A DNA stretch of 55,137 bases from Desulfobacterales bacterium (lineage in GTDB: Bacteria > Desulfobacterota > Desulfobacteria > Desulfobacterales > JAHEIW01), in assembly GCA_050122475.1 (NCBI GenBank), contig JASFIV010000003.1, forward strand, positions 1 through 55,137, given 5' to 3'. This document shows positions 22,571 to 26,446 of the stretch, one piece after another. Each line of letters begins with the position of its first letter. Position 1 is the stretch's first letter. The notes below the pieces were generated by a model. It was not told where the DNA came from, ran no database searches, and saw only the letters and a list, made by a program, of their open reading frames with translations. The position numbers and the translations under genes were made by a program.

Positions 22571-22599
22571 TTGACAAAACAAGACGACCGGTCTATTTT
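22571..22599 (+). promoter_or_regulatory. Sigma70 promoter of the TetR gene with operator in the spacer
   Basis: TTGACA (22571)-17 bp-TATTTT (22594); CAAGACGACCGGTCTA at 22580-22595. Confidence 0.75.
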
Positions 22600-22635
22600 T
22601 ATCGGGAACTTAGCTTTTAATCGGGAGACCATTCA

Positions 22636-23217
22636 ATGCCATTAAATACCAGAGACCGGATCATAGAGACCGGTGCTGCCATTATCCATCGTAAAGGATT
22701 TAACCACACCGGTATTCAGGAAATACTGACCGCCGCCGGAGTGCCCAAGGGATCTTTTTATAATTATTTCAATAGCAAAAACGATTTCGGGCTTGCAATT
22801 GTAGATTATTTTTCAGGCCACTTCAGGCAAATTGCCAGCCAAACGCTGGATGATACCGCCATCTCGCCGCTGAACCGGATTTATCAATTTTTAACAGCTT
22901 TTATGCAACATTTTGAATCCCAAAATTATACCGGCGGCTGCCCGATTGGCAATTTAGCCCAGGAAATGGGGGATTTAAACCCGGAATTTCGAGCAAAACT
23001 CAAAGAATCCATCGATAGGATGATCGATGCGTATTCACAGGTTCTGGCAGCAGCGCAGCAGGACGGTAAGATACCGAAAAGTTTAGATATAAAAGACACC
23101 GCCAGCTTTATTGTCGCTGGCTGGCATGGTGCCATTATCCAGATGAAGCTAACCAAAAGCCTGACACCCCTGAAAAACCATCGAAATTTTATCTTTGATC
23201 ATGTTTTGAAGAAATGA
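22636..23217 (+). CDS. TetR family regulator, NemR/AcuR-like
   Basis: HTH GVPKGSFYNYF; conserved GCxxGN cysteine (GGCPIGNLAQE). Confidence 0.9.
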   Translation: MPLNTRDRIIETGAAIIHRKGFNHTGIQEILTAAGVPKGSFYNYFNSKNDFGLAIVDYFSGHFRQIASQTLDDTAISPLNRIYQFLTAFMQHFESQNYTGGCPIGNLAQEMGDLNPEFRAKLKESIDRMIDAYSQVLAAAQQDGKIPKSLDIKDTASFIVAGWHGAIIQMKLTKSLTPLKNHRNFIFDHVLKK

Positions 23218-23274
23218 GCATTTAATTTAAACCGATAGGCCGTAGTGTTTTAAGCCTGCAAGTGGATTATTAAT

Positions 23275-23290
23275 TAGACCGGTCGTCTTG
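23275..23290. promoter_or_regulatory. Second TetR operator
   Basis: TAGACCGGTCGTCTTG is the exact reverse complement of 22580-22595. Confidence 0.75.
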
Positions 23291-23473
23291 AAATATGATT
23301 TGTTGAGATTGAAAAAGTGCCTATCCATATCCATATGACATTGCAGGCTGGAAATATGCGTCCAGAATGATTTATACCGCATAGCATCATAATAAACCGC
23401 AGGAAGCGGCCATCTCCATCATCACCTGCGACGATATGGTGCCGTGGCTGCCGGGTCTGGAGGTTATAGCAAG

Positions 23474-23869
23474 ATGAAGTCCGATGACACGTCACAAAAA
23501 GAGAACAGGATAAAAACGTTAAAACCCGGGCGGCATACCGCAAAGATCAAAAACCTGGTGGATCGCGTGCTCGATGGTCCCGGGCAATTTGATCCCCAAA
23601 TGCGTCGGTCAGTGGCTCAGAAAGTTGCCGCGCACGCCGGCGCTCTGTCAAAAGACGACGTCCAACTGCCGCCGGAAATCAACAGCTATGTCGACAAGAT
23701 TGCCCTGCATGCTTACCGGGTGACCGATGCGGACATCGAGGCCCTGCGCGCTGCCGGATACTCGGAGGATGTCATTTTCGAGATGACCGTCAGCGCGGCC
23801 CTGGGCGCCGGCATGGCCCGGCTGAAGAGCGGCCTGACGGCTTTGAGGGGAGGTGAAGATGCGGCTTAA
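23474..23869 (+). CDS. Cys-less AhpD/carboxymuconolactone decarboxylase-like protein
   Basis: YVDKIALHAYRVTDADIEALRAAGYSEDVIFEMTV resembles an AhpD C-terminal half; GGAGG RBS; overlaps the start of the next gene. Confidence 0.75.
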   Translation: MKSDDTSQKENRIKTLKPGRHTAKIKNLVDRVLDGPGQFDPQMRRSVAQKVAAHAGALSKDDVQLPPEINSYVDKIALHAYRVTDADIEALRAAGYSEDVIFEMTVSAALGAGMARLKSGLTALRGGEDAA

Positions 23870-24437
23870 AAAAATCGAAAACGGCCAAACGATCTCCAAA
23901 AAACTGATCCTGGCCCTTATTGGCCTTAAGCTCGGCGAACGCGCTCCGGACGTGCTTCGAACGGTATGGTATCGTCCGGATTTTTTCGGCAAACACTACG
24001 GCCGCTACCTGAATGCCGTCATGCGTGGCCCCTCTGAATGGTCTGTGGGTGAGCGCGAGCTGTTCGCCGCCTTTGTATCCCGCTTAAACGAATGTGCTTT
24101 TTGAACCGGTGCCCATGGCGCGGTCGCGTCGAAGGCATTGGGCGATGAGACCCGTCAGGCAGTTCTGACTGACTGGCGCACCGCTCCGATTAGCGCAAAG
24201 CTACGGGCGGCCCTGGAACTGATAGAAAAACTGACCCTCAGGCCGGGTGAGGTGAATTCCGATGATATGGATGCCCTGCGGGCCGTAGGCCTCAGTGAAG
24301 CTGCCATCGAAGATGCCATTCATGTGACGGCCCTGTTTAACATTATCGACCGCATTGCCGACGCCCTGGGCTTTGACATTCCCAGCGATAGCGGCTTTGC
24401 TAATATGGCGGAAGTATTACTAAAAAGAGGCTATTAA
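23859..24437 (+). CDS. AhpD/CMD-family selenoprotein (CxxU), 192 aa, UGA at 24102-24104 read as Sec
   Basis: ERELFAAFVSRLNE-C-A-F-[TGA]-TGAHGAVASKALGDE continues in frame into ORF 24138-24437; UGA occupies the second Cys of the AhpD NxCxxCxxxH motif. Confidence 0.88.
24105..24143 (+). promoter_or_regulatory. Bacterial SECIS-like hairpin
   Basis: GGCGC-GGUC-GCGUC apical stem-loop (24117-24130) starting with G, 17 nt after UGA; lower stem GCCCA (24111-24115)/UGGGC (24139-24143). Confidence 0.72.
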
Positions 24438-24464: not shown

Positions 24465-24689
24465 CTCACGCAGACCCGCCCGCCTTGCCTTTTTCGCATG
24501 GCGGGCGTGGGCCGCAAAGTCGCCAAGAAAAACATCCAATGATTTTTTTAGTCTATTTGTGACCTTCGCGGGCTTCGTGTTCTTTGTGGTGAAAACAAAA
24601 AATTTATATAACCACGAAGGCCACGAAGAACACAAAGAATTAATGCTTTAAACAAAAAAAGTCTTTGCGCCTTAGCGTCTTTGCGTGAG
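24465..24689. repeat. Composite palindromic repeat of 9-mer units
   Basis: Ends CTCACGCA / TGCGTGAG; internal CTTCGTGTTCTTTGTGGT / ACCACGAAGGCCACGAAG; first ~41 bp shared with 31383. Confidence 0.7.
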
Positions 24690-24838
24690 TAACACTAGAA
24701 TTAGATTTATTCCGCTATTCATCCTTAGTGTTTTGGTCCACATGTAATTTTCTTCGCCTTCTTTTTTGATGCTTGACGCTTTTAGATGCCGGTCATAATT
24801 TTAGTGCACTTATTGCTTGTAAATTGAAGGATAGAAAA

Positions 24839-26446
24839 ATGACGCCCTACAAAAACAAAACCAAAGACGAACTCATCAATGAATTAAAGGCCATTAAAAA
24901 GCAAATCAAAGAGCAGGCGAATTCTTATGAAAAAGAATGCAAACTACACGACCATGCAGAAGAAGAACTCCGTCTGGCCAAGGTGATCATCGATAACAGC
25001 CCTGTGGTTCTGTTTCGCCGGATGGCCGGCGATAAACCCCGGTTGGTGTATGTTTCCGACAACATTCGTCAGATGGGATATACCCCAGAGGATTTTATAG
25101 AAGAAAAAATTCTTTTCCGCGAAATCGTCCACCCCGATGACATGGATCGCCTTGCAGAGGAAATCCAGCATTACGCCGAAGAAGATGCCGAAGAATACAC
25201 CCAGCTTTACCGGATTATGACCAAGGACGGCCAGGTCCGCTGGGTGGAGGACCAGACCTCGGTGGTGCGGGATGCAGACGGCAACAAAATATTTAACCAA
25301 GGCCTGCTGGTGGATATTACCAGCCGCAAGCTGGCAGAAGAAGAAGTGCGCAAAAGTGAAGAAAAGTTTCGCCGCATTGTCGAAACCGCCGGCGAAGGCT
25401 TTATTCTAATGGACGAAGACCTGACCATTATCGATGTTAACGAGGCTTACTGCCGGTTGCTCGGTTATTCCCGGGAAGAAATTCTGGGTAAAACCCCGAT
25501 TGACCTGGCCACTGAAGAGTACAGGCAATTCATGCTGGCCAACCGGGAGGAAATTCTGGCCAAAGAATATCGGCAATTCGAAGGAACCATGGTGGCCAAA
25601 GACGGCCGTCATGTGCCGATTTTAGTGCACGGCAGCACCCTTCGCGGTGATCAGGGAGAAATCATCGGCAACATGGCGTTTGTCACCGATATGACCGAGC
25701 ACAAAAAAGCCCTGGCACTGGCCGGTGAAGTTCAAAAAAGCCTGCTGCCCCAGAGCAAGCCGGATGTGCACGGTCTGGATGTGGCCGGCCGCAATGTATC
25801 CTGTGATGAAATCGGCGGGGATTATTTTGATTTTCTGTGGCGACGCGAAAATCCGGATGGCCCTTTCAGTGTCGTGGTGGGCGACATCACCGGTCACGGG
25901 GTGGATTCTGCTCTGTTGATGACGTCGGCCCGAGCATTTTTGCGTATGCGTGCCTCTCAGCCCGGCACCATATCTGATATCGTCAGCGCCATGAACAGCC
26001 ACCTGACGCAGGATGTACTTGAAACCGGGCGCTTTATGACTCTTTTTTATTTAACCGTAGATCCGCAAAAAGACCGCATCGACTGGGTGCGCGCCGGCCA
26101 TGATCCCGCCCTTTTATACGACCCCCAACAGGACGAGTTTGAGGAATTAAAGGGCACCGGTATGGCGCTGGGCGTCAATGACGCCTTTAAGTATCCTGAA
26201 AACCGCCACGAGGGTCTTACAAACGGACAGATCATTGCCATCGGCACCGACGGCATCTGGGAAGCCTTTAATAAGCAGGGTGCCATGTTTGGTAAAAACC
26301 GTTTTAAAGAAATCATTCGCCAGAACGCGGCGGCGGGCGCAGATGATATCCTCAATGCCGTATACAAGGAAATCAATCAATTCATCGAAGGTCAAAAAAC
26401 AGAAGACGATATTACGCTGGTCATCATAAAGGTGAAAAAACCGTAA
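24839..26446 (+). CDS. PAS-PAS-SpoIIE (PP2C/RsbU-like) phosphatase
   Basis: Two PAS/PAC domains; GGDYFD, GDITGHG, TDGIWE and EDDITLV motifs. Confidence 0.93.
   Translation: MTPYKNKTKDELINELKAIKKQIKEQANSYEKECKLHDHAEEELRLAKVIIDNSPVVLFRRMAGDKPRLVYVSDNIRQMGYTPEDFIEEKILFREIVHPDDMDRLAEEIQHYAEEDAEEYTQLYRIMTKDGQVRWVEDQTSVVRDADGNKIFNQGLLVDITSRKLAEEEVRKSEEKFRRIVETAGEGFILMDEDLTIIDVNEAYCRLLGYSREEILGKTPIDLATEEYRQFMLANREEILAKEYRQFEGTMVAKDGRHVPILVHGSTLRGDQGEIIGNMAFVTDMTEHKKALALAGEVQKSLLPQSKPDVHGLDVAGRNVSCDEIGGDYFDFLWRRENPDGPFSVVVGDITGHGVDSALLMTSARAFLRMRASQPGTISDIVSAMNSHLTQDVLETGRFMTLFYLTVDPQKDRIDWVRAGHDPALLYDPQQDEFEELKGTGMALGVNDAFKYPENRHEGLTNGQIIAIGTDGIWEAFNKQGAMFGKNRFKEIIRQNAAAGADDILNAVYKEINQFIEGQKTEDDITLVIIKVKKP

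Follow-up and report, generated by a model that had tools for sequence, protein, structure and literature searches.

Escherichia coli NemR is encoded at the head of the nemR-nemA-gloA unit, in which the repressor gene comes first and detoxification genes follow (PMC3739934). Its bleach-sensing switch is reported to be a bond between Cys106 and Lys175 (PMC7464077), Cys21 and Cys116 form electrophile-responsive disulfides (PMC7464077, PMC3739934), and the protein binds an inverted repeat in its own promoter (PMC13178969). A NemR-related TetR protein, AltR, belongs to the ten-gene alt thiosulfinate-tolerance cluster of Pantoea ananatis; thiosulfinates were shown experimentally to be its inducers, it depends on one key cysteine, Cys100, and it autoregulates at an inverted repeat overlapping its own -10 element, with a second related box elsewhere in the cluster (PMC13178969). 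AhpD-like selenoproteins are known from a separate literature (Zhang et al. 2005, 2008): work on the Sargasso Sea described an "AhpD-like protein, COG2128, CxxU" (PMC1088965), 299 such sequences made it the fourth most numerous selenoprotein family in the Global Ocean Sampling survey (PMC2398784), and a 2026 review lists the family under TIGR01926 (PMC13188914), in each case as a single protein of unknown function. Here, we describe a locus that combines relatives of both on a 55,137-nt stretch of DNA (positions 1 to 55,137 of contig JASFIV010000003.1, assembly GCA_050122475.1; hereafter the window) from a wetland or marine Desulfobacterales metagenome-assembled genome, a host different from E. 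coli. In the window, the gene for a NemR/AcuR-type TetR repressor is followed by two overlapping open reading frames (ORFs), of which ORF1 encodes a Cys-less protein of predicted AhpD fold and ORF2 an AhpD-like selenoprotein (Table 1).

We consider it probable, at roughly 0.7, that this locus is a small stress module composed of a NemR-type regulator and a two-subunit AhpD-like selenoenzyme, a reading that draws on sequence features, conservation, synteny, gene fusions, fold and selenocysteine (Sec) decoding signals. In the proposed mechanism, the TetR dimer would bind a putative operator, O1, in the promoter spacer of its own gene, causing autorepression, and would also bind a second putative operator, O2, behind the gene, so that transcripts could not enter the operon that follows; the repressor would let go once a reactive electrophile or oxidant had modified Cys102. 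ORF2, which carries the AhpD signature with Sec at the second position (C-x-x-U), would be the catalytic subunit, and ORF1, a Cys-less paralogue of the same fold produced by coupled translation, would be its non-catalytic partner. The two could thereby form a pseudo-dimer with one active site and potentially act as a peroxidase; the substrate could be a hydroperoxide or else a thiol in oxidised or alkylated form.

ORF2, read through an in-frame TGA (...NECAFUTGAHG...), belongs to the already known family of CxxU AhpD-like selenoproteins. It scores 108.6 bits against TIGR01926 with U read as C (cut-off 81.8), and the same model searched on the DNA gives 100.9 bits with one TGA inside the match. 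E67, C79, U82 and H86 are invariant in 32/32 ORF2 sequences and reproduce the E-x11-C-x2-C-x3-H spacing of Mycobacterium tuberculosis AhpD. ORF1, in turn, contains no Cys residue and no CxxC active site, and its TAA (23867-23869) lies inside the start of ORF2, with an overlap of 11 nt if ORF2 begins at ATG 23859 or 17 nt if it begins at GTG 23853; the preliminary description of this DNA, made from the letters alone, had reported exactly such a Cys-less first AhpD-like ORF overlapping the selenoprotein start. The idea that ORF1 is the tail of a second selenoprotein was dropped, as the ORF1 frame is closed on its upstream side by TAA TAA.

Searched against Pfam, including the CMD family PF02627, ORF1 matched no family at E <= 0.1, and its sole NCBIfam match is a weak, sub-threshold one to TIGR01926 (19.9 bits, C-terminal third). 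The predicted structure (pLDDT 90.9) has the AhpD-type all-helical fold: the best Foldseek matches to the model were 2oyo, 6k40 and 3c1l (TMq 0.62, probability 1.00), which are "peroxidase-related" structures of the TIGR01926 type, and VIA returned AhpD, CMD and sestrin structures at ranks 1-19 (Z 12.0-7.1, 12.0 being that of 3c1l), the next match having Z 5.0. The model also resembles M. tuberculosis AhpD (1knc, 1gu9; Z 7.8-8.3). In M. tuberculosis AhpD, a homotrimer, a single chain holds two internal repeats; unlike in that protein, the fold here appears divided over two gene products, and Sec stands at the second Cys position.

The ORF1 family is large, with 72 close clusters and, in a 50%-clustered library, 1,286 representatives at E <= 0.001 (456 at <= 1e-10), mostly of about 110-120 aa. 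The 40 members compared have R44, D87 and E103 in common, and no Cys is conserved among them. The sources name these proteins "hypothetical protein" or "alkylhydroperoxidase family enzyme", and the nearest ORF1 clusters in the ESM Atlas are "hypothetical protein" with no common Pfam family; we suggest that so large an unnamed family deserves a name. One copy (L184:1489-1815), from a lineage with ORF1 alone beside a convergent GcvT-like gene, has an in-frame TGA (DEDIEA*RKAGY) and may be a pseudogene or reflect a sequencing error. Paired AhpD/CMD-family genes that lie adjacent are represented by TIGR04030 (Avi_7169 alkylhydroperoxidase domain) and TIGR04029 (Avi_7170 CMD domain). However, ORF2 scores 53.6 bits against the TIGR04030 cut-off of 233.15, and ORF1 has no TIGR04029 match at E <= 0.1; with both models below cut-off, ORF1 and ORF2 constitute a different pair.

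The preliminary description had made joint conservation of the two genes a test of its reading; we found an ORF2 homolog directly 3' of ORF1 in 75 of 80 genome loci retrieved through the ORF1 family and in 65 of 80 metagenome loci. By record title, the genome loci come from Desulfobacterales, Chloroflexota, Gemmatimonadota, Acidobacteriota, Actinomycetota, Myxococcota, Verrucomicrobiota and others, and the pair spans at least seven phyla. The remaining five genome loci comprise one that is decayed (L024), one cut by a contig end (L071) and three without ORF2 within 3 kb. Stop and start codons overlap by 1-20 nt in 58 of 76 ORF1/ORF2 junctions: 31 share a single base, 12 overlap by 4 nt and 15 by 10-20 nt. 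Eight others are spaced by 0-6 nt and one by 66 nt, and nine were unreadable because the alignment stopped short of the ORF2 start. Variants of the arrangement include three Actinomycetota loci (L090, L092 and L093), in which one ORF1 precedes two tandem Sec-containing copies of ORF2, and L069, with a second Sec-containing ORF2 copy 2 kb away.

Furthermore, natural fusions were identified: five of ten long ORF1-family representatives consist of the post-UGA part of ORF2, a linker beginning GY-x-(L/M)-x-SG, and the ORF1 domain. A search with one of them (P0095) returned 267 matches, and among the 120 matches listed the query coverage was 52-100%, mostly over 85%. P0240 (333 aa) is a full-length ORF2-linker-ORF1 fusion with the active site S-x-x-C instead of C-x-x-U, the first Cys being lost and a Cys occupying the Sec position. 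Its AlphaFold model is uninformative on domain packing (mean pLDDT 66.1, pTM 0.66; below 50 for residues 1-65 and the linker, 190-222), the poor regions arising because the aligned fragments start after the UGA. A scan of metagenome DNA with a further query (P0110) recovered only unfused ORF1-then-ORF2 loci or ORF1 alone, so that the upstream half of the fused genes and its UGA were not seen on DNA. Taken together, gene fusion, coupled translation and synteny argue that ORF1 and ORF2 function as a unit. The preliminary description's heteromer with a non-catalytic partner thus gains indirect support from synteny across phyla, from the stop/start overlaps and from the natural fusions.

The repressor contains the TetR_N (PF00440, 41.6 bits) and TetR_C_13 (PF16925, 82.5 bits) domains, as in NemR, and is 29% identical to E. 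coli K-12 NemR over 178 aa (E 3e-29). In the alignment, C102 and K171 correspond to Cys106 and Lys175 of NemR, and both are invariant in 9/9 aligned proteins (eight of the genus plus NemR). The original assignment of a NemR-like repressor therefore holds in its domain architecture, its similarity and its retained switch residues. The top NCBIfam model is that of AcuR (NF051457), at 162.3 bits against a curated cut-off of 247; scoring below it, the protein is not an AcuR equivalog. It would be a one-cysteine thiol-switch repressor of the NemR/AcuR clade.

The 16-mer CAAGACGACCGGTCTA occurs as inverted copies flanking the TetR gene, and these, our putative O1 and O2, are the only matches in the window at <=3 mismatches; shuffled windows contained a mean of 0.20 matches, and two were reached in 1 of 100. 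In the whole assembly (4.73 Mb, 86% complete), the only exact copies are likewise these two, both beside the TetR gene, as are the two genomic copies of the 13-mer core AGACGACCGGTCT. A third match in the assembly has 2 mismatches, and a reversed control pattern gave 6 matches. A wider regulon built on that third match was rejected, as its two mismatches break the GGTCTA half, and six other genomic sites fitting the looser pattern (A/T)AGAC-N5-GTCT(A/T), all of them without the core, were taken as chance occurrences. The inverted 16-mer on either side of the gene, reported in the preliminary description, is thus confirmed, and the genome-wide motif scan suggested there places both copies at this locus alone.

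To compare the sites among congeners, eight loci of the genus were used (the window, L005-L007 and L009-L012). The O1 core AGACGACCGGTCTA is invariant in 8/8 loci, with diverged flanks, and all eight have a TTGAC(A/T) -35 hexamer, 5 nt, and the 14-nt core running into the -10 element. O2 is present in 7/8, five times as ATTAGACCGGTCGTCT, the inverted standard form, and twice (L010, L012) as the 16-bp TAGACCGACCGGTCTA. Such phylogenetic footprinting supports the twin operators that had been predicted. The promoter of E. coli nemR contains TAGACCGACTGGTCTA 15 nt upstream of the start codon, which we take to be the NemR box; the box TAGACC-N4-GGTCTA, quoted in the preliminary description, is really there in this form. 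The O2 variant TAGACCGACCGGTCTA is 15/16 identical to it, and the window sites, (A/T)AGAC-GACCG-GTCTA, have the TAGAC/GTCTA arms of the E. coli box with one base less between them. The strict TAGACC-N4-GGTCTA pattern has no copy in the window's own genome. A NemR-type operator appears, judging from these sequences, to be conserved between Gammaproteobacteria and Desulfobacterota.

The locus thus resembles nemR-nemA-gloA in the repressor architecture and switch residues, in a palindromic candidate operator with a GGTCTA half-site in the promoter of the repressor gene, and in the order of repressor gene and presumed detoxification genes, a glyoxalase-family gene being part of the unit in two congeners. 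It differs in the second candidate operator behind the gene, in the half-site spacing of most sites, and in its cargo, an AhpD-like selenoenzyme pair, the OYE reductase gene being absent from the window locus. With AltR it shares a NemR-related TetR protein, a single candidate switch Cys, an inverted repeat overlapping the repressor's own -10 element and a second related box; unlike here, the alt operator is CAATCTAC-N6-GTAGATTG (PMC13178969).

Several observations weigh against the stress-module reading. At 29% identity to NemR, the repressor is closer to AcuR (3bru), the best matches among solved structures being 3bru (1.6e-29) and 3knw and only then E. coli NemR 4yze (2.4e-22), and it has a single Cys in total, with none at the positions of NemR Cys21 and Cys116. 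The window operators are 15-bp variants, 11/16 identical to the E. coli box in an ungapped comparison, in which only the GGTCTA half is identical. A direct BLASTP comparison of ORF1 with ORF2 gives a marginal match (E 0.009, 20 residues). Moreover, ORF1 occurs without an adjacent ORF2 in 15/80 metagenome loci and in 3/80 genome loci, the latter (L029, L030 and L033) having 3 kb of downstream sequence; in the two ORF1-alone metagenome loci that were read downstream (L137 and L184), the next gene is convergent and unrelated. These loci would fit a role of ORF1 other than that of a stoichiometric subunit, either as an accessory protein for substrate delivery, maturation or inhibition, or as an independent protein that merely shares the operon, as would the faster evolution of ORF1 among congeners (52-76% identity, against 78-88% for ORF2) and the two ORF2 copies behind one ORF1 in Actinomycetota. 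However, the fusions with their conserved linker join both domains 1:1 in one polypeptide, overlapping stop and start codons are the rule, and the predicted fold of ORF1 is that of the ORF2 family, of which the solved members are oligomers. We therefore regard this alternative as unlikely, and a non-catalytic subunit as the better description of ORF1.

On the side of regulation, O2 is missing from L009, and the promoter at O2 is weak in the window, where the promoter scan called none and TTAATT-N18-TATGAT was read by eye. In addition, two of the eight congeners, L011 (G014) and L012 (G008), keep the repressor and both operators with only fragments of ORF1 and ORF2, indicating that the regulator does not depend on its cargo. 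Both sites might accordingly serve the control of the repressor alone, with O2 as an auxiliary, looping or roadblock site and with ORF1 and ORF2 transcribed independently, outside the regulon; a conserved 30-nt box downstream of O2 could then be their real, separate promoter. Yet the flank of tetR that bears O2 is always that of the cargo genes, in L011 O2 lies inside TCGACA-N17-TAAAAT (also read by eye), and the absence of O2 from L009, where only 110 nt separate tetR from ORF1, suggests a single transcript from the O1 promoter. A glyoxalase-family gene joins the same slot in two congeners, and the genome holds no further operator sites. Repressor-only control is, on this balance, decidedly improbable, and we favor a predicted role of O2 in the repression of ORF1 and ORF2.

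The reading of TGA as Sec concerns ORF2 itself. TGA occupies the Sec codon in all 77 site-covering ORF2 copies from the genome loci and in 62 of 63 from the metagenome loci, the remaining one having TGT (C-R-Y-C, unfused), so that 139/140 ORF1-partnered ORF2 genes use TGA, and the protein is strongly conserved on either side of it. A bacterial SECIS-like (selenocysteine insertion sequence) hairpin begins 4 nt past the UGA. Of 75 distinct hairpin sequences, 62 have GU and 9 have CG at pair 17-28, and at pair 16-29, 67 have GC, 3 AU and 1 UA; the compensatory changes of the apical stem fall at synonymous positions. The assembly encodes selB (376.7 bits), two copies of selD, both containing an in-frame TGA, and a selA gene divided between two contig ends. 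As a further point on the opposing side, no tRNA-Sec turned up in the 86%-complete assembly, whether with Rfam, near selB or with ARAGORN on the whole assembly, the top Rfam match being tRNA-Ser. That the TGA is a true stop and the two ORFs are remnants of decaying genes, ORF2 as two fragments of an AhpD-like gene and ORF1 as another remnant, is extremely improbable, since the missing tRNA-Sec and the modest fold z-score of the hairpin alone (-1.58) are set against a TGA at the same codon across phyla, conservation before and after it, synonymous-site compensatory changes in the hairpin, the selA, selB and selD genes with selD itself containing an in-frame TGA, and the place of AhpD-like proteins among the listed selenoprotein families (PMC13188914, PMC1088965).

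ORF1 was detected in 9 of 22 genomes of the genus of the window (its own included), whereas the 39 further genomes from the family and order lacked it; among 401 genomes sampled evenly across the phylum, the only strong match was in the window's own genome. A TetR homolog lies upstream of the pair in 4 of the 80 genome loci, all of this genus, and the TetR link is thus confined to one Desulfobacterales genus. The synteny of repressor and pair that the preliminary description proposed to check therefore exists within the genus, whereas the pair itself ranges far more widely. A widespread two-gene cassette, probably of lateral origin, thus came under a predicted NemR-type repressor in this genus. 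No third partner conserved across phyla emerged among the 68 of 137 picked flanking ORFs that were scanned; the neighbors are lineage-specific, for example trehalase and FG-GAP genes in Gemmatimonadales and luciferase-like oxidoreductases in two Chloroflexota loci.

In the stretch from O2 to ORF1, the 30-nt leader box is recognizable in 5 of the 8 congener loci (the window, L005, L006, L007 and L011), including a case in which a VOC gene follows; it may be a real promoter, a leader or the site of a second regulator. Downstream of the box, the window retains the end of a glyoxalase/VOC gene, of which 11/14 residues are identical to the L016 protein (90% DNA identity over 40 nt). L006/L016 and L007 carry an intact gene of this kind, encoding 131 aa (PF00903, 2e-16), after O2 and ahead of ORF1, and no further copy was found in the window's own assembly by tblastn at E <= 1e-3. 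The reduction of this gene to 14 codons explains the gap between O2 and ORF1. By this comparison, the ancestral operon of the genus would have begun with a glyoxalase-family gene that was deleted in the lineage of the window.

On the 3' side of the cassette, the window carries a PAS-PAS-SpoIIE (PP2C phosphatase) gene, which keeps its position in the congeners L017, L019 and L024, even next to a decayed cassette. Between ORF2 and this gene lies an inverted-repeat element that is part of a dispersed repeat; one of its 24-nt arms has 36 copies in the assembly and the other 7, at <=3 mismatches, with the look of a repetitive extragenic palindrome (REP) or a miniature inverted-repeat transposable element (MITE).

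Four metatranscriptome runs contained short contigs 100% identical to the window at a depth of 2-4, covering tetR, ORF1 (from 11 nt before the ATG), the ORF1/ORF2 junction (23810-23960) and the UGA (24085-24235). Given the possibility of DNA carry-over and the low depth, these RNA-library contigs offer a weak hint of ORF1 and ORF2 expression.

Table 1. Features of the repressor-AhpD locus and related genes (positions in the window unless a locus or contig is given)
Feature	Position	Strand	Details
Sigma-70-like promoter of the TetR gene	22571..22599	+	TTGACA 22571-22576, 17-nt spacer, TATTTT 22594-22599; 10/12 matches
Putative operator O1	22580..22595	+	core AGACGACCGGTCTA 22582-22595; fills the promoter spacer, overlaps the -10
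NemR/AcuR-type TetR repressor	22636..23217	+	193 aa; single Cys102, Lys171
Putative operator O2	23275..23290	-	inverted 16-mer; 58 nt past the TetR stop codon, 184 nt before ORF1
Conserved 30-nt leader box	23307..23336	+	GATTGAAAAAGTGCCTATCCATATCCATAT; GATTG(A/T)AAAAGTGCC...CATATCCATAT, ~20 nt downstream of O2
Glyoxalase/VOC gene remnant	23397..23438	+	final 14 codons, PQEAAISIITCDDM
ORF1, Cys-less AhpD/CMD-fold protein	23474..23869	+	131 aa; proposed non-catalytic subunit
ORF2, AhpD-like selenoprotein (TIGR01926)	23859..24437	+	192 aa; E67-x11-C79-x2-U82-x3-H86; UGA 24102-24104
SECIS-like hairpin	24106..24141	+	lower stem 24106-24113/24134-24141, apical stem 24116-24131, loop GGUC 24122-24125
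Inverted-repeat element	24560-24641		between ORF2 and the next gene
PAS-PAS-SpoIIE gene	24773-26446		3' of the cassette
Intact VOC gene in two congeners	L016:2564-2959; L007:1057-1449		PF00903
selD genes	G000:C147:9752-10675; G000:C5:16145-17068		in-frame TGA in each
Split selA	end of G000:C177 and start of G000:C157

Neither the type of regulator nor the selenoprotein family is new. The Cys-less AhpD-fold partner, coupled to ORF2, sometimes fused to it and almost always accompanying the Sec form, appears undescribed in the literature on AhpD-like selenoproteins and TIGR01926, supplements aside, as does NemR-type control of the pair in this genus; the partner, the fusions and the near-obligate use of Sec go unmentioned in the considered parts of PMC1088965, PMC2398784 and PMC13188914. 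The combination that the preliminary description could not match to any earlier account thus appears new in these two respects, but its Sec-AhpD family had already been described.

Tentatively, and with more doubt than confidence, one could go further and view the partnered AhpD-like proteins as a distinct, obligately heteromeric class of selenoenzymes, in which Sec would be nearly irreplaceable and the substrates would be products of electrophile stress instead of hydroperoxides. Candidates under that doubtful extension might include thiols and selenols in alkylated or oxidised form, adducts of quinones or aldehydes, and halogenated compounds. The CMD-fold debrominase Bmp8 acts on halogenated compounds.

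To conclude, few bacterial selenoproteins are as common in ocean and soil metagenomes as the AhpD-like CxxU proteins (PMC2398784); gene callers cut the selenoprotein ORF2 at the UGA. If a large subfamily of these proteins indeed has a translationally coupled, sometimes fused Cys-less paralogue, expression and assays of the selenoprotein should include this partner. In this Desulfobacterales genus, the predicted NemR-type control and the glyoxalase-family neighbor offer a testable setting for the pair, namely reactive electrophile or oxidant stress in an anaerobe. If the heteromeric-class extension is true, NemR-type control beside a glyoxalase-family gene would give the first physiological pointer to what one of the most abundant bacterial selenoprotein families does.

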